DNA from: Escherichia phage vB_Eco_F31 | Sequence record: OP870147.1 | Strand: one strand, 5' to 3' | DNA length: 64,000 nucleotides | Shown: positions 2,535 to 10,978 of the stretch, piece by piece | Position numbering within the stretch: position 1 is the stretch's first letter | Layout of the letters: every line of letters begins with the position of its first letter | The notes under the pieces: generated by a model | The model's input: only the letters and a program-made list of their open reading frames with translations | The model's database searches: none | Told to the model about the DNA's origin: nothing | Position numbers and translations under genes: made by a program

Positions 2535-2760
2535 CTCGGTCCCATGATTTGGCCATTAATTCGGACATAAATTCTTCAATGCGCGTTTCTTTAGATGGAC
2601 TTTCACTATTAGAGACCGCAAGTTTGTAATCTGCAATAGGACAGAACATATCAAGGTCCATATTAAGGTCGTCTTTGATTTTTTCTTCTGACACATCTTT
2701 ATCGTATGTGTACAGATAACTATCACATGATTCTGATTTAATGTAAATTGCTATACTCAT
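2524..2760 (-). CDS. hypothetical protein
   Basis: ORF track 2524..2775; ATG at 2760 forms ATGA overlap with upstream stop; no recognisable domain. Confidence 0.45.
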   Translation of the reverse strand: MSIAIYIKSESCDSYLYTYDKDVSEEKIKDDLNMDLDMFCPIADYKLAVSNSESPSKETRIEEFMSELMAKSWDRDDE

Positions 2761-3248
2761 CTCAAATTCCTGCATTCGGTAATAAAACGTTCAACTTCAT
2801 TATTCTTGGCCTTTATCTTGTCTTTACGTTCCTGTAAACTACTTTTAACAAGATTAATAATGATGCCTACAGTACCGCCGCCAATGATGCCGCCAACAAC
2901 ACTTATGATAATAGATGCTAATAAGATAGCAATAATATCAACAAAACCGAAAGAACTCACCTTAGTACTAAAAAACCATACCGACGGTACAAATATAATC
3001 CATCCTGTTATCCATTGGCACTTATTGAAAAACTTTTCAAGCTCAGCTTGAGTTGTTCGTATTACTTCATCGATAGGTTGATATCCATTAATGTATCTGT
3101 TCACGATAATACCTGCTGGCTGGTCGATTTTAAATTCTTGGCAAATATGTTTCACTAAGTAGGATGGACATCCTGTCCAATCTACTGAATAGTACGAAAT
3201 ACCTTCATTGCCGTCGTCAATATTAGACCAATATGTTTTGTTAATCAT
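2757..3248 (-). CDS. small membrane protein, FIxECR-tail family
   Basis: 163 aa, long hydrophobic segment, C-terminal ...ERFITECRNLR. Confidence 0.55.
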   Translation of the reverse strand: MINKTYWSNIDDGNEGISYYSVDWTGCPSYLVKHICQEFKIDQPAGIIVNRYINGYQPIDEVIRTTQAELEKFFNKCQWITGWIIFVPSVWFFSTKVSSFGFVDIIAILLASIIISVVGGIIGGGTVGIIINLVKSSLQERKDKIKAKNNEVERFITECRNLR

Positions 3249-3934
3249 TACCAGCCTTCCATAGGGAATTCCAGATAAACTTGGGCATTGACACGAATTT
3301 CATTGGTAATCTTTTTAACTCGGTCTGTATTACGAGATACACGTCCGAACCAACGCCATCCGTTACTAATTGCACGAGAACCAGTGTGCCATGTTTGCCA
3401 ATCAAACTGAAGAAGAGTACGATCTGGAGCTTCCCATTTCTCTAGTTCACCTTTTTCAATTTTTTCGAGGACTTCTTTGTGCCACTGGCGATAGATAAGT
3501 TCGCCATCAGGAATCTGACTGAACTCTGCAGTTCCTGTTGCAAAATGAGTAGGACACACGTCAGCGTTAACAAGACCAAGAATATGTTCAGAATGGTAAC
3601 GAGGGTTGTCATAGTCAGGTTGTCCTGCAGTAATAAAGTGTTGACCAACTGGAATATCAGGGCGAGGAACATCGTCATGGTGGTATCCAGGAATAGCAGG
3701 ATACCAACCAGGCATCAGCATATGGACTCGTGAATCAAATACAACATGTTGATTAGTCCAATCAATTGGGAGATTGGCAATAAAGCTACGAGTGATTGAG
3801 CCACCATTATCCCAAGCAAAACCCAAATCACAATTAAAGAACATTGGTTCATTTTTGATTCGGTCATTTTGTACGTTATGTGCAAAACTACCAACTGCAC
3901 GAGCTTGACTATTAAAAGTTTTAGAACTATTCAT
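3248..3934 (-). CDS. hypothetical protein
   Basis: 228 aa ORF, ATG with GAGGAAA SD; His/Asp-rich segment GYHHDD; function not assignable by eye. Confidence 0.55.
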   Translation of the reverse strand: MNSSKTFNSQARAVGSFAHNVQNDRIKNEPMFFNCDLGFAWDNGGSITRSFIANLPIDWTNQHVVFDSRVHMLMPGWYPAIPGYHHDDVPRPDIPVGQHFITAGQPDYDNPRYHSEHILGLVNADVCPTHFATGTAEFSQIPDGELIYRQWHKEVLEKIEKGELEKWEAPDRTLLQFDWQTWHTGSRAISNGWRWFGRVSRNTDRVKKITNEIRVNAQVYLEFPMEGW

Positions 3935-3935
3935 A

Positions 3936-4241
3936 TTATTTTCCTCGACATTCTTTAATGAAATTTTCTAGATTGGTAGATTCAATAGCTTTTTTACGAG
4001 CTTCTGCATGTTCTTCTTCAGACAATTTACATTTATAATTAACCCAGACATTATGGTCGAAACTAGTCGTGGCATATAATAACAATGCTCCAACGAATAG
4101 CAAAAACGGCGATAAGAATACAAAACCAGGAACACCATCCATATCGTAAGCCTTTTGTAATACTGCAACAGAAAGAGCTGCGTAAAAAGGTGATGCAAAT
4201 ATTGTTAAAAGACCAATTCGGTTGGTTTCGCCTAATTTCAT
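3936..4241 (-). CDS. small membrane protein, FIxECR-tail family
   Basis: 101 aa, two hydrophobic segments, C-terminal ...ENFIKECRGK; early promoter module upstream. Confidence 0.55.
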   Translation of the reverse strand: MKLGETNRIGLLTIFASPFYAALSVAVLQKAYDMDGVPGFVFLSPFLLFVGALLLYATTSFDHNVWVNYKCKLSEEEHAEARKKAIESTNLENFIKECRGK

Positions 4242-4299
4242 AATATTCTCCTCATGTTTTAATAGGACTACTATAATATAGCCCTATCAGTTTGTACAC

Positions 4300-4580: not shown

Positions 4581-5537
4581 TTATTTGAAAGGTTTTACCA
4601 TATGAAAGTTTTGTTTGAAACGCTTGACGTAATCGTCGTGTCCTAAGCTTTGGTACATACTTACTACTTTGCTATAATTTTCCCAAGCGAACTCACGGAA
4701 CCATCCTGATGTGATTGATGTACAGACCTTTTCAAGGGCCATCATAAAACTATCACGTGGATGGATTTTAAAGTCGTTAGGAATCTGTGAACGTTCAAGA
4801 GCTAATACACAAGCTTCTTCATATACACCGGCTAATTTAACCATTTCTGGTAACGATTCGAACTTCTCGCGTGAGGTCATGACTTCAGAACCGTCTTTCA
4901 TATAAAACTTATAAGCAGGCTGGTCAGTTAGTGCAATGGCTTCATGGATAGTATCATGGTCATACGTATAGATGTCATCTTTAAAGAACGCACTTTTAGA
5001 AGTGTCAAGAACTGGGTGAGCATAATTCAAGGTTTCTTTCTGGCGTTTCAGCATAATTTCAGTAAGTTCATCGTTCAGTGTAACACCTTTACCACGAAGA
5101 TACTGAATATGGTTCATAGTCTTTAAAAAGAATGGATTATTTTTCTTGAAACGATGAGACATCTTAATTGCAAGACATATCTCAGGAGTTGCCCAGTAAA
5201 ACCCGTTCAAACGGTCTTTAGTCAAATTTTTCTTGGAGTATTTTAAAAGGTCATAAGAAGACGTGAAATCTTCAGGAGTGAGTTCACCGACTAGTTCGCG
5301 AACGTTAGTGATAGCCGGAACGATGTATGCTTCAAAATGAGTTTCGCGTCCATTATGGAAGCATTTGAAAACTTGGACATCAGGGTTATCTTGGTGAACA
5401 TATACACCCATCATTTGATTTTTGAATGCATTCCAAGAACCTTGGTCCGCAATAAAGTCCCAGTCACTATTTTTAATAGCGCTAGAATCAATAAGACCGT
5501 GATAGTGAAGTGCACGAGAACCAATAACTAACATCAT
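4581..5537 (-). CDS. hypothetical protein with possible nucleotidyltransferase-like N-terminus
   Basis: 318 aa; N-terminal IGSRALHYHG...SDWDF resembles a GS...DxD signature (weak, unverified). Confidence 0.5.
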   Translation of the reverse strand: MMLVIGSRALHYHGLIDSSAIKNSDWDFIADQGSWNAFKNQMMGVYVHQDNPDVQVFKCFHNGRETHFEAYIVPAITNVRELVGELTPEDFTSSYDLLKYSKKNLTKDRLNGFYWATPEICLAIKMSHRFKKNNPFFLKTMNHIQYLRGKGVTLNDELTEIMLKRQKETLNYAHPVLDTSKSAFFKDDIYTYDHDTIHEAIALTDQPAYKFYMKDGSEVMTSREKFESLPEMVKLAGVYEEACVLALERSQIPNDFKIHPRDSFMMALEKVCTSITSGWFREFAWENYSKVVSMYQSLGHDDYVKRFKQNFHMVKPFK

Positions 5538-5565: not shown

Positions 5566-5805
5566 TTAAATTTCACGACATGCGATATTATATTCATCCC
5601 AGAGGTCATCATGTGAAGCCTCTACCAATGGAACGATTGTACCGTTTATGTCTTCATTATAAGGGCAAATTGTACAGTGCGCATCTTCGAATCGGATGCC
5701 TTTGTGTTCAGATTTTTTATAACGCATATCGAATATCTTTGCAAACTTTTCACGAGTAATGGTTTTACCAACCACTTTGGTTCCGATACTTTCGTAATAA
5801 ATCAT
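5566..5805 (-). CDS. hypothetical small protein with CxxC motif
   Basis: ORF track 5566..5817; ATG 5805 preceded by GGAG; contains HCTICPY. Confidence 0.45.
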   Translation of the reverse strand: MIYYESIGTKVVGKTITREKFAKIFDMRYKKSEHKGIRFEDAHCTICPYNEDINGTIVPLVEASHDDLWDEYNIACREI

Positions 5806-5822
5806 TGTGGACTCCATTTGTT

Positions 5823-5863
5823 TTGATAGGACTACTATAACATAGCCCTATCTTGTTGTAAAC
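5823..5863 (-). promoter_or_regulatory. early promoter module (GTTTAC + TA-rich -10) with repeated element GATAGGACTACTATAACATAGCCCTATC
   Basis: Near-identical to the modules at 4262-4288 and 12443-12470. Confidence 0.5.
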
Positions 5864-5867
5864 TGTT

Positions 5868-6065
5868 TTAGCAAGAATAACTAGATGATACCCAGCCTTG
5901 AACAGTGATATTATTGTGGGATAATGAGATCGCGTCCTGGAGATTCAGACCTGCGTTATCTTCAATCCATAATGTAACTTCTTCGCGTTCTTCTGTTGCA
6001 ATTTGGAACAGGTTTTCCAGAGCAGCTACTGCCGTACGTACAGCACAATCTAATTCACGAGACAT
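5868..6065 (-). CDS. small protein, GWVxSSxxC C-terminal family (paralog 3)
   Basis: 65 aa ending ...VQGWVSSSYSC. Confidence 0.5.
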   Translation of the reverse strand: MSRELDCAVRTAVAALENLFQIATEEREEVTLWIEDNAGLNLQDAISLSHNNITVQGWVSSSYSC

Positions 6066-6074
6066 ATTGTTTCC

Positions 6075-6347
6075 TTAGCAAGTGTGAGAAGATGCGACCC
6101 AACCACCGGTTTCGAGGCTCAGGTTGTAGTCGTATTGGTAAACGTCAGCCCATTCAGCATAGCCGTTTTTTGTACAACGTTCAAGATCGGCTTTAAGATG
6201 TCCGGGTGAATGATAGGTTCCACCCATACCATAAGCTGGGTACAAGTTGAATGTTGTGTTTTGTTTATCAGCAATTTCTTTGGCAGCCTCAATAGCTGCA
6301 TAGATTTTTGCTACAGCTTCAGCCAGTTCGGTTTGTTCTTTAGACAT
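6075..6347 (-). CDS. small protein, GWVxSSxxC C-terminal family (paralog 2)
   Basis: 90 aa ending ...GGWVASSHTC. Confidence 0.55.
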   Translation of the reverse strand: MSKEQTELAEAVAKIYAAIEAAKEIADKQNTTFNLYPAYGMGGTYHSPGHLKADLERCTKNGYAEWADVYQYDYNLSLETGGWVASSHTC

Positions 6348-6356
6348 AATGATTCC

Positions 6357-6662
6357 TTAGCACAACGCAGAAGACGAAACCCAAGCACCTTCAGTAATAA
6401 CGTATCCATTACCTTCACGCTTAACATCGCCGCCATTATTTTCAATTTCATCTTTCATCCACTGGGATACGATTTCACCCTTAGGATAATAAGTACGACC
6501 GCTACCATAATCACCTACAGAAAATGATACGGCATATTGGTCTGCGATCTTTGTTGCTTCTTCTTCGATACGTTCAGCTTGATTCAGAAGTTTATAAATT
6601 GCATCTGAAGCGGATTTGGCATCATTAAACTCTGGTACTTTAATTTCAATAATCTTACTCAT
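6357..6662 (-). CDS. small protein, GWVxSSxxC C-terminal family (paralog 1)
   Basis: 101 aa ending ...GAWVSSSALC. Confidence 0.55.
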   Translation of the reverse strand: MSKIIEIKVPEFNDAKSASDAIYKLLNQAERIEEEATKIADQYAVSFSVGDYGSGRTYYPKGEIVSQWMKDEIENNGGDVKREGNGYVITEGAWVSSSALC

Positions 6663-7018
6663 TTTCTACATTCCTTAATAAAGTTTTCGATTGTTTCATT
6701 TTCACGTTTAGCTAGGAGTTCATTATAACTAATCATTTGAGAAGCGTAAACCTTTTTATTTTTCTTGTTATGGTTTATAAAATCGTAGTAAAAATAGACT
6801 ACAGTACAAAAGGATGCGATAGATGCAAAGGCTTGGGTATACCGTAAGTCCTGCCATTGGTCTGTGAATCCACCAGTGTTACCTATAAATCCTAACACAA
6901 CTCCGTCAATAAGAAATCCAACTAATCCAAAGGCAAATCCCATGCCAATACTCATAATAAAAATTAGAATGTTCTCACCAAGAGAAGGCCATACGGTTAA
7001 GAGTTGAGGCTTTTGCAT
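6659..7018 (-). CDS. small membrane protein, FIxECR-tail family
   Basis: 119 aa, hydrophobic core, C-terminal ...ENFIKECRK; stop overlaps next start. Confidence 0.55.
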   Translation of the reverse strand: MQKPQLLTVWPSLGENILIFIMSIGMGFAFGLVGFLIDGVVLGFIGNTGGFTDQWQDLRYTQAFASIASFCTVVYFYYDFINHNKKNKKVYASQMISYNELLAKRENETIENFIKECRK

Positions 7019-7392
7019 CTTATTTCCTTAACGAATTCCATAGCTTCTTCATATTCATACTTTTTAACAGCTTCATCATACTGAGCTTGGGCTTTTGCGC
7101 ACTGAACTTTCCACTCACGAACTCGAGCTCTGTGATGACGGCCTTGGTGCCAATATCCTGCCCAATTAATAGGCATTAATAAAAACGGTACAATAAGTGG
7201 TGCGACGAACATTAATGAAAACGCTGCATCAGACGATATAACTTTATTGGAATCTAAAACAGCTCCTATAATCATAAAGATTAAAAATGCTAAAGCTAAA
7301 ATAGGACCAAATAGTACTTCGTTTGGGATTAATTTACGTTTGTATTCGTATGCCCAGGGCTTAATTGGCATGTACAGGGTTGGCTTTGACAT
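6997..7392 (-). CDS. membrane protein (hypothetical)
   Basis: ORF track 6997..7422; ATG 7392 (MSKPTLY...) chosen; hydrophobic segments; C-terminal ...EFVKEIRCK. Confidence 0.45.
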   Translation of the reverse strand: MSKPTLYMPIKPWAYEYKRKLIPNEVLFGPILALAFLIFMIIGAVLDSNKVISSDAAFSLMFVAPLIVPFLLMPINWAGYWHQGRHHRARVREWKVQCAKAQAQYDEAVKKYEYEEAMEFVKEIRCKSLNS

Positions 7393-7963
7393 ATTCTCTA
7401 CATTCCATAATAAATTGCTCAAGGATTAAATTGTTAGTGAAATTAGGACTAACAACCATAGTTTCATAAAGCGCATCAATAGCACTTAAAGCATCAACTC
7501 TCTTAAGCAAAGGCTTGCCTTCATACATAGTTTCAGAATCGACGATTAAAGTGAAGTAGTATTTTTTATTATTGACCAGAACTTCTGTATCAATATAAAA
7601 CATGTTAGACCTCAGAAGCTTATCTCTAAAACCATAATAATCTTCAGAGCGTTCGCTGATATATTCCCATTCGGTGTTTAAACAACAAACAGACCACGTA
7701 GGAGCAACGAAATCAGTGAATCTAATATCATGGTCTGCAACTAGTTTAGCAATAGCTCCGATATCATGAATCATAATACCTGGGGCTAATAAAGATTTTC
7801 TGCTATGGCTAGCCGTTTTCTCGGTGGTCTCATAAGAAGACGACCAGTACCATTTACGTCCAGTTGCAACATATCGTAATGAATCAACTAAAGACGTAGG
7901 TGGATTTACCTTATCTCGGAACTCTTCGAACATTGAGTCAATATCATTATTTTGGTTTCGCAT
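7361..7963 (-). CDS. hypothetical protein (C-terminal EQFIMECRE motif)
   Basis: ORF track 7361..7984; ATG 7963 preceded by AAGGAG. Confidence 0.5.
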   Translation of the reverse strand: MRNQNNDIDSMFEEFRDKVNPPTSLVDSLRYVATGRKWYWSSSYETTEKTASHSRKSLLAPGIMIHDIGAIAKLVADHDIRFTDFVAPTWSVCCLNTEWEYISERSEDYYGFRDKLLRSNMFYIDTEVLVNNKKYYFTLIVDSETMYEGKPLLKRVDALSAIDALYETMVVSPNFTNNLILEQFIMECREYVKANPVHAN

Positions 7964-7980
7964 GTTAACTCCTTTATTAT

Positions 7981-8004
7981 CCAAAAGGAGGACCGGAGTC
8001 CTCC
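7981..8004 (-). terminator. hairpin GGAGGAC-CGGA-GTCCTCC + U-run (minus strand) after 8013..8606
   Basis: 7-bp GC-rich stem followed by TTTTGG on the transcribed strand. Confidence 0.45.
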
Positions 8005-10823: not shown

Positions 10824-10900
<77 letters not shown>

Positions 10901-10903
10901 GAT

Positions 10904-10978
10904 TGGTGACCCTGGCTGGTTTCGATCCAGCTACCTATCAGTTATGAGCTGACAGCTCTCCCATTGAGCTACAGGGCC
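10904..10978 (-). tRNA. tRNA with CAU anticodon (Ile by lysidine modification, or Met), CCA encoded
   Basis: Manual cloverleaf: acceptor GGCCCTG/CAGGGTC, D-arm GCTC...GAGC, anticodon loop CTCATAA, T-arm GCTGG-ATCGAAA-CCAGC. Confidence 0.75.

Follow-up and report, generated by a model that had tools for sequence, protein, structure and literature searches.

Escherichia phage vB_Eco_F31 (sequence record OP870147.1) carries three consecutive small genes whose products end in nearly identical residues, the last of which is a cysteine. The DNA analysed here, referred to as the window, is a stretch of 64,000 nucleotides (nt) of this record, and the three genes, the trio, lie on its minus strand. 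They belong to a large family that is united by its extreme C-terminus. Members of this family are found upstream of a gene with the domains DUF7277 and DUF7275 in very different phages, and such a gene, whose product is predicted to be a nucleotidyltransferase (NTase), also lies downstream of the trio. The central features are listed here in window coordinates (position 1 is the first letter), with lengths in amino acids (aa).

6357-6662, minus strand: family member 1, 101 aa, ending AWVSSSALC (in full GAWVSSSALC); homologue of RB69ORF139c, with the main 'YGxGxTY' type of body
6357-6383, minus strand: tail of member 1 (WVSSSALC and stop), located by a six-frame regular-expression scan
6075-6347, minus strand: family member 2, 90 aa, ending GWVASSHTC (in full GGWVASSHTC); homologue of RB69ORF137c, with the main type of body
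6075-6101, minus strand: tail of member 2 (WVASSHTC and stop), from the same scan
5868-6065, minus strand: family member 3, 65 aa, ending GWVSSSYSC (in full QGWVSSSYSC); homologue of RB69ORF136c, with a short body lacking YGxGxTY
5868-5894, minus strand: tail of member 3 (WVSSSYSC and stop), from the same scan
4581-5537, minus strand: partner gene, encoding a 318-aa DUF7277 and DUF7275 protein; homologue of RB69ORF134c, predicted pol-beta NTase with a MenT/AbiEii-like fold

The coordinates, lengths and C-termini of the trio's open reading frames (ORFs) had been given in a first-pass annotation and were exactly reproduced. It had also described the genes as tandem relatives that share little except the C-terminus. 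The relationship is borne out, since members 1 and 2 align by BLASTP with E = 2e-4 over 54 residues, both match phrog_899 (E = 1.3e-22 and E = 5e-19, respectively) and the same tail is on all three proteins. For genes 1 and 2 the similarity had been understated, as they also have in common an N-terminal helix ending IAD and the YGxGxTY segment. Member 3, which matches phrog_4882 (E = 1e-36), retains the N-terminal helix and the tail; the middle YGxGxTY segment is missing. The family hidden Markov model (HMM) matches members 1 and 2 with E = 5.8e-23 and E = 6.4e-22, and member 3 weakly, with E = 6.9e-5. The net charges of the three proteins are -6, -5 and -7.

The pattern W..SS..C-stop has three matches in the six frames of the window, exclusively at the ends of the trio ORFs, against a chance expectation of 0.013 (300 shuffles) or 0.023 (analytical, from residue frequencies). 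The codons of the tail vary across the trio: the Val is GTT, GTC or GTA, the next residue is TCG, GCA or TCA, and the last Ser of the pair is TCT, TCT or AGT. Such codon differences among the paralogues place the conservation at the level of the protein, as had been proposed. A cause at the level of DNA, with the tail sequence serving as the ribosome-binding site (RBS) of the next gene, was rejected on account of these differences and of the retention of the tail in 140 distant proteins. The first-pass annotation had argued the same point from the third gene, which was said to have no gene downstream. An 83-aa ORF does in fact start about 50 nt on, past a hairpin, but no overlapping RBS follows gene 3, and so the argument stands. 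The start of member 1 overlaps the stop of an e.3-like gene (ATGA), and the starts of members 2 and 3 are each preceded by TAAGGA overlapping the stop of the previous gene. Judging by these overlaps, the trio is probably translated as a coupled unit.

How large is the family, and what holds it together? A profile search that was exhaustive over 1.84 billion cluster representatives, with a cut-off of E <= 0.001, returned 171 proteins (clusters), and the family has at least that many members. One candidate, P0064, was excluded from the count; it is a helicase-like protein of 953 aa without the tail, and its five weak matches appear to come from a spurious match to a repeat. The tail was examined in 156 sequences, the window's three included. 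The exact end W-x-[S/A/P]-S-S-x-x-C is present in 140 of them, all three window ORFs among these, and in 148 when the near variant is counted in. In an alignment of 104 sequences with a mean column identity of 20%, the sole invariant columns are W(-8), S(-5), S(-4) and C(-1). The terminal Cys is the only Cys in 79 of the 140 proteins with the exact tail. Median length is 89.5 aa (range about 65-175 aa) and median net charge is -8.5.

The consensus order of the family is an amphipathic helix (...EAExIADExG), F-x-F, YGMGGTYYP, an acidic variable stretch and GGW[V]SSSxxC. The helix ending I-A-D, the F-x-F and the Y-G-x-G-x-T-Y are all found in the 101-aa and 90-aa proteins; the 65-aa protein has the helix and lacks the YG segment. 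When the last 12 residues were removed from the tail-bearing ORFs of 80 viral loci, BLASTP sorted the remaining bodies into at least five multi-member clusters with no connection between them, of 128, 24, 15, 7 and 4 members. The same tail is thus present on at least five unlinked bodies, and it is the tail, not the body, that unites the family. The 15-member cluster is the type of window member 3, and across genera this body type is usually the tail-bearing gene nearest the NTase-fold gene. On sequence grounds, this is a large, essentially phage-restricted family of acidic proteins, defined by the extreme C-terminus G-x-W-x-[S/A/P]-S-S-x-x-Cys-COOH. Neither Pfam, NCBIfam nor PADLOC gave a significant match to the small proteins, and the PHROGs entries that they match have no assigned function.

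Copy number and tail form vary among relatives. Other T4-like phages have more copies: a tandem of five in JS10, and another five in PEi20, where an unrelated ORF splits one off. A sub-family of about 75 aa, represented among these copies, carries the motif twice, as an internal D-W-x-S-S-S-C-Y-G-E and a terminal W-x-[P/S]-S-S-C of shorter spacing (L003:3622-3846, L004:3190-3420, L042:4368-4631 and L024:9700-9954); it is absent from the window's phage. Its two motif copies may, from their sequence, pair with each other. In addition, a metagenomic phage of higher GC content (L040:161-1353) has four tandem members, three of which have the variant tail G-W-x-P-S-G-x-x-C, in which strict conservation is confined to the Trp, one Ser and the terminal Cys.

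The first clue to a partner came from a distant aquatic member, P0030, encoded directly upstream of a DUF7277/DUF7275 gene. The same DUF7277/DUF7275 family includes the window's 318-aa ORF, one gene downstream of the trio, which lay outside the coordinates of the first-pass annotation and had been overlooked. A first sample comprised 30 viral loci, each of about 21 kb. One to five ORFs with the motif are present in 28 of them, all on the enzyme strand and no more than about 3.4 kb upstream. No motif ORFs were found elsewhere in these loci, in agreement with the HMM scan. A broader sample consisted of the 80 loci already mentioned, which have a DUF7277/DUF7275 gene at 40-97% identity and comprise 1.28 Mb and 13,624 ORFs. 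Tail-bearing ORFs are present in 79 of the 80, at one to six per locus and 220 in total. Of these hits, 216 are on the enzyme strand and 214 are upstream, with a median gap to the enzyme gene of 876 nt; the four on the opposite strand are one gene in four related loci.

The pairing extends to Phapecoctavirus, an Acinetobacter phage, an Erwinia jumbo phage and four contigs of metagenome-assembled genomes (MAGs). It is also seen in the reverse direction. Eight distant members of the small-protein family were looked up, and in all seven informative contigs a DUF7275 gene lies zero or one gene downstream. The other neighbours in those contigs vary and include UvsX/gp41, Prim-Pol, ribonucleotide reductase with an intein, and IMPDH/dCMP deaminase. 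The linkage of the two genes thus holds in both directions. Phage T4 was scanned by HMM and motif over 1-90 kb and 119.5-168.9 kb, and neither the tail motif nor an NTase match was found in these parts. The sole family-HMM match (tk.1 region, E = 0.003) has no tail and is not credible. The first-pass annotation had not recognised the family from T4, which fits this absence, and the partner enzyme is missing likewise.

Such tight, directional linkage makes the Cys-tailed proteins most likely protein partners of the phage enzyme, and we consider that the two probably function together. A different reading takes the paralogues as independent effectors, whose tail targets a shared host site or machine such as the membrane, a protease, a chaperone or the virion, with the NTase-fold gene an unrelated neighbour. 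Diverse bodies with one tail would fit this, as would the small membrane proteins (e.3/e.4-like) encoded just upstream in T4-like phages. However, these membrane genes are not conserved in the distant loci, whereas the NTase-fold gene is. The acidic sequences have no evident signal peptide or transmembrane segment, and no known targeting signal of such a form was found in the literature searched. Targeting of independent effectors is quite improbable in our view.

The AlphaFold 2 model of the 101-aa protein has a mean predicted local distance difference test (pLDDT) score of 89.3 and a predicted template modelling (pTM) score of 0.75. In this model a long helix (15-43) is followed by a small sheet, and the tail forms a strand (93-96) and a short helix (97-100); the tail region has a pLDDT of about 85, and W94-S96 are in a strand of the fold. 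A Foldseek search of the model against viral models returned only uncharacterised members of the same family, and the family profile matched no solved structure among PDB sequences. It had been suggested at first that the tail could be a modification, targeting or binding tag. That idea is strengthened by the variety of body types and by the linkage to the NTase-fold gene, though it is unproven. Since the Trp lies in a beta-strand of the model, the tail is not simply a floppy appended tag.

Is the tail what the enzyme recognises? Or, is it a part of the proteins' own architecture? It could be a structural, oligomerisation or metal-binding element, in which the Trp closes the fold and the Cys, Ser hydroxyls and carboxylate bind metal or make thiol-mediated contacts between subunits or paralogues. 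The proteins would then act alone, perhaps as acidic mimics or as sponges that counter host factors, and a shared early-gene cassette would account for their position beside the NTase. The confident placement of W94-S96 and 97-100 within the modelled fold argues for this, together with the strongly acidic character of the proteins and the existence of NTase-fold genes without adjacent partners. The sub-family with the motif twice in one chain, as if the copies pair, and the tandem repetition of W-x-S-S-S in some members (e.g. P0065) are also consistent with it. What it leaves unexplained is the linkage, as tail genes are almost only upstream of one gene across phages with otherwise unlike neighbourhoods. 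Moreover, a purely structural motif need not be exactly C-terminal, yet in 140 of the 156 sequences it is, and bodies that BLASTP does not link keep the same tail. A mainly structural tail is, on balance, unlikely.

The partner itself was modelled and compared with known folds. The scores for fold similarity are 10.0 for the MenT1 toxin (145 residues aligned), 8.7 for ANT(2''), 8.6 for TglT/MenT3, 7.8 for MenT4, 7.2 for the lincosamide NTase LnuA and 6.8 for the Megavirus poly(A) polymerase, with further putative NTases at about 7.6-7.7. The pol-beta motif is present; G6-S7 and D25-x-D27 are invariant in 42 sequences as well as in 7 very diverse ones. According to the predicted secondary structure (strand 2-5, helix 6-12, strand 26-31), G6-S7 is at the junction of strand 1 and helix 1 and D25-x-D27 is on strand 2. 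E69, on strand 64-73 and a candidate third catalytic carboxylate, is invariant in the 42-sequence set and poorly alignable in the shortened Gordonia and Curvibacter versions. The helical lobe has invariants of its own, namely K125 and H128 (I-K-x-S-H-R), H194-D195, H198 and a cluster E240-E241...E248-R249. K125 and H194-D195, candidate counterparts of K137 and D152 in the catalytic motifs III and IV of MenT, are 68 residues apart, compared with 15 in MenT.

Pfam matched only DUF7275 and DUF7277 in the partner, with no match to DUF1814/AbiEii or RlaP; PADLOC had no match, and the family profile matched no PDB sequence. The protein is predicted from its model to be a nucleotidyltransferase of the pol-beta superfamily with a MenT/AbiEii-like fold. 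We regard the modelled fold and the motifs as established, and its activity as predicted. The enzyme family is very widespread among phages, with 734 phage records and over 2,100 protein clusters, and nearly absent from about 185,000 species genomes, where it is found in five MAG contigs only.

Proximity to tRNA genes was seen at several loci. In the window, tRNA-Arg and tRNA-Met genes (10824-10978, minus strand) are about 4 kb upstream of the trio. In a 165.5-kb T4-like genome (L020:9200-9560) the NTase-fold gene is directly downstream of tRNA genes, and in Gordonia phage Aphelion (L044:5865-8081) a tRNA cluster lies 1.2 kb downstream of it. These positions may point to a function connected with tRNA, or they may be mere synteny. 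Likewise, a Phapecoctavirus (L042:1534-2277) and the Erwinia jumbo phage (L045:6645-7394) have a gene for a NinI-like Ser/Thr protein phosphatase at most a few kb from the module. As it is found in these two loci and not in the others, it was not accepted as part of the module and is possibly a coincidence.

We propose that the one to six Cys-tailed genes and the downstream DUF7277/DUF7275 gene form one module. The small proteins would be partners of the NTase-fold enzyme, as regulators, pseudosubstrates or acceptor substrates, with the tail as their shared recognition element; this is a tentative reading, which we hold at slightly below an even chance. The shared tail would be what the enzyme recognises, and anchoring by the Trp would bring the hydroxyls of the invariant Ser pair, and the last Cys with its free carboxylate, into the active-site cleft or close to it. 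The small protein could then be an acceptor, whose Ser is nucleotidylylated or phosphorylated, or it could tune the enzyme as a pseudosubstrate or regulator. With their acidic character, the bodies possibly imitate the nucleic-acid substrate of the enzyme's relatives (tRNA 3' ends in the case of MenT), and the paralogues, with their different bodies, might differ in regulation or targeting. That the proteins physically interact and that the tail makes the contact are inferences, as are the chemistry and the biological purpose.

Several points weigh against this proposal. Gene linkage alone fits a co-regulated neighbour as well as a partner. Because AlphaFold 2 assigns the Trp and the residues after it to a beta-strand and a short helix (pLDDT about 85), the role of the tail may be chiefly structural, and entry into an active site may not be open to it. 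Up to six paralogues per enzyme would be unusual for a simple regulator. The similarity of the partner to MenT is at the level of fold only, with no match by sequence profile (PDB, PADLOC, or Pfam beyond DUF7275/DUF7277). Additionally, the NTase-fold gene is present without a nearby tail gene in a 165,540-bp T4-like genome (L020/L068), in Gordonia phage Aphelion and in Curvibacter phage P26059A, which means that the enzyme can exist without an adjacent partner. The enzymes of Aphelion and P26059A have a shortened N-terminal domain and no detectable partner. Finally, in MenAT1 it is the N-terminal helix of the antitoxin that does the work, not the C-terminus (PMC10435456).

This last point bears on an antitoxin-like explanation, according to which the N-terminal helix, as in MenA1, restrains a toxic NTase and the tail is a degradation or turnover signal that releases the enzyme at a set time in infection. 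The order of the genes, small upstream and NTase downstream, matches MenAT1, and a long N-terminal amphipathic helix is present in all members, as befits a comparison with MenA1, which works through such a helix (PMC10435456). In the model, though, the tail is partly folded, and several paralogues per enzyme are not expected of an antitoxin. C-terminal tags recognised by proteases are well known, which would favour a turnover signal. To our knowledge, however, the tail is unlike known C-terminal degrons, such as the non-polar endings of the ssrA type. An antitoxin of this kind is improbable.

A further alternative invokes ring chemistry of the lanthionine or aminovinyl-cysteine kind. The Ser at -5 or -4 would be activated by the linked enzyme through phosphorylation or nucleotidylylation and eliminated to dehydroalanine, to which the Cys thiol would add, leaving a small thioether ring at the end of the protein. 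A Ser three to four residues before a Cys is the spacing typical of lanthionine rings, and here an invariant Ser-Ser is three to four residues before an invariant terminal Cys, with the two residues between them variable. The fold of the linked enzyme is one that transfers phosphate or nucleotides to hydroxyl groups (PMC11375011). Against this, the module has no conserved neighbour that encodes a lyase, cyclase, flavoprotein decarboxylase or radical-SAM protein, and the neighbours other than the NTase vary; in the Pfam calls for neighbours at 7 diverse loci only DUF7275/DUF7277 recurs, and no dehydratase/cyclase, flavin-dependent Cys decarboxylase or radical-SAM maturase is among them. The proteins are folded domains rather than leader-plus-core peptides, and the variant tails W.PSG..C and W.[PS]SSC alter the spacing. 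Ring formation is, for these reasons, a far-fetched explanation.

Returning to the recognition of the tail by the linked NTase, a bolder version can be stated. The tail could be a dedicated acceptor peptide for a new protein modification, in which the linked NTase nucleotidylylates or phosphorylates the Ser pair, possibly followed by elimination and capture by the Cys to give a thioether ring. A single enzyme would activate, inactivate or arm proteins with different bodies in the course of infection, and these might serve as mimics of tRNA ends against host tRNA-directed defence or translation. We consider this version distinctly unlikely.

The region is 99.4% identical to Mosigvirus genomes, e.g. 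APCEc01 and JK36 (RB69-like, of the T4 type), and annotated relatives label all three trio genes, the counterparts of RB69ORF139c, 137c and 136c, as hypothetical. The trio belongs to a block inserted between the homologues of T4 e.2 and e.3, which adjoin in T4. In the RB69 reference, RB69ORF139c (P0002) is given as 71 aa, ends ..GEIVSQWYEK and lacks the tail; it is 100% identical to the first 67% of window member 1, and the tail-less entry is probably due to a frameshift or sequence difference in the RB69 record. The features that flank the core genes are these.

6659-7018, minus strand: e.3-like small membrane protein (phrog_2330 and related annotations), directly upstream of the trio and marking the e.2/e.3 junction
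6722-6750, minus strand: promoter-like site TTTACG-17-TATAAT inside the e.3-like gene, upstream of the trio, from a consensus scan
5834-5862, minus strand: promoter-like site TTTACA-17-TATAGT (with TG), overlapping the hairpin, from a consensus scan only
5825-5852, minus strand: RNA hairpin just after member 3, minimum free energy -16 kcal/mol, z = -4.55, 0 of 200 shuffles as good
5566-5817, minus strand: 83-aa ORF (phrog_3723, function not assigned), between the trio and the NTase-fold gene

The 83-aa ORF, which has H-C-T-I-C-P within it and ends ..IACREI, is conserved in Mosigvirus and PEi20 (L004:4165-4434) and not in the distant loci, where the small protein directly adjoins the NTase-fold gene. 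It is therefore accessory and not a core part of the module. No U tract follows the hairpin; the related record SA79RD annotates a terminator. The promoter-like site at 5834-5862 may, from its sequence, drive the 83-aa and NTase-fold genes, although such sites are no more numerous in the region than expected from shuffles and the evidence from this one is weak. The site at 6722-6750 falls in the part of the e.3-like gene where a related record has an annotated middle promoter of the T4 type. Two genes upstream of the trio is an e.4-like small membrane protein (L001:5498-5872, corresponding to about 6997-7371 of the window), which is labelled 'sulfurtransferase' in JK36, JK42, JK45 and vB_Eco_F27. 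This label is unsupported by Pfam and PHROGs and looks like an annotation artefact.

A second C-terminal motif, (E/D)-x-F-[I/V]-x-[E/M]-C-R, is present 1-11 residues before the stop in several otherwise different genes that flank the module. In the window these are 2757-3299, 3936-4283, 6659-7018, 6997-7422 and 7361-7984, with a weaker form in 5566-5817, all on the minus strand; the endings are ..ERFITECRNLR, ..ENFIKECRGK, ..ENFIKECRK, ..EFVKEIRCKSLNS and ..EQFIMECREYVKANPVHAN. The pattern F[IV]..CR occurs five times in the 716 window ORFs of at least 35 aa, and four of the five are at the ends of these genes. Such endings are also present in JS10, PEi20 and the 165.5-kb T4-like genome (L003, L004 and L020:9576-9971). 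The motif could be a protein-level tag, or partly a constraint imposed by the RBS (AAGGAA encodes K-E).

The small early genes of T4-like phages are a large pool without assigned function, and the sequences described here are already in databases as hypothetical proteins and PHROG or DUF entries. Here the last eight residues suffice to define a whole family, which can be linked to a single enzyme gene in T4-like phages (of enterobacteria, Aeromonas and Acinetobacter), in Phapecoctavirus, in Erwinia jumbo phages and in phages from aquatic metagenomes. DUF7275 and DUF7277 gain a fold-level assignment, as a MenT-like nucleotidyltransferase, and a candidate protein partner. Literature searches on the RB69 ORF names, the PHROG and DUF identifiers, the tail strings and phage NTases in general found nothing on the module, on a family defined by this tail or on its pairing with a MenT-like enzyme. 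Relatives of the enzyme block translation by extending tRNA ends under the control of small proteins, so a phage version with partners of its own could be a device for host takeover or counter-defence.

Among known systems, phrog_899, phrog_4882 and the Pfam entries DUF7275 and DUF7277 are those to which the window proteins themselves belong, as clusters without assigned function. Enzymes that move a nucleotide to a hydroxyl of a small partner encoded nearby, by means of a pol-beta fold, are found in the MNT-HEPN type VII pairs and in GlnD acting on PII. The analogy with the phage module is functional only, with no homology claimed, and the acceptors there are loop Tyr residues instead of a C-terminal tail rich in Ser. 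The fold matches also include ANT and Lnu enzymes, which nucleotidylylate hydroxyl groups of small molecules. Precursors of lanthipeptides and aminovinyl-cysteine peptides resemble the Cys-tailed proteins in having a Ser three to four positions before a C-terminal or near-terminal Cys, and in tandem precursor-like genes beside one enzyme gene. They differ in that here the tail is invariant and the N-terminal bodies variable, the reverse of precursors, and in that the proteins here are folded. RlaP is a phage-encoded, RNA-ligase-associated pol-beta NTase proposed to act on damaged RNA ends (PMC7824862). Like RlaP, the window's enzyme is a phage NTase of the pol-beta type; its module is about 4 kb from phage tRNA genes, and two partner-less phages have the NTase-fold gene near tRNA genes. 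It has no Pfam RlaP match, however, and its conserved neighbour is a Cys-tailed protein, not an RNA ligase, which is near the module in only one inspected locus (L041).

The closest parallels are with toxins that have the same fold. Enzymes of the MenT family extend tRNA 3' ends by adding nucleotides, under the control of partner proteins encoded upstream (PMC7450476, PMC10435456). MenA1, of 68 aa and with a long helix, is encoded upstream of MenT1, binds it and induces phosphorylation in its active site, controlling phosphotransfer (PMC10435456, PMC11375011). AbiE (AbiEi/AbiEii) and DUF1814 toxins likewise have a pol-beta NTase core and a C-terminal helical lobe, and an upstream partner gene regulates the AbiE-type enzyme (PMC7450476; bioRxiv 10.64898/2026.01.19.700257). 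The AbiEi and MenA3/MenA4 partners are larger winged-helix/COG5340 proteins, unlike the Cys-tailed proteins, and these are host defence systems, not phage genes. With MenAT1 of Mycobacterium tuberculosis (MenA1 and the DUF1814 NTase MenT1) the phage module has no detectable sequence similarity. MenT1 T39-x-D41 and MenT3 S78-x-D80 have a phospho-acceptor Thr or Ser two residues before the catalytic Asp (PMC10435456), whereas the phage enzyme has the invariant D25-W-D27. The phage enzyme is also about 120 residues longer, with its own conserved His/Asp/Glu cluster, and its module is in lytic phages rather than bacterial chromosomes, with up to six partner genes per enzyme. The invariant Cys-ending tail of the phage partners has no reported counterpart in MenA1. 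The architecture of the module is therefore a variant of the 'NTase plus small upstream partner' theme, distinguished by its carriage in lytic phages, multiple partner paralogues, a canonical D-x-D and the Cys-ending tails of the partners.

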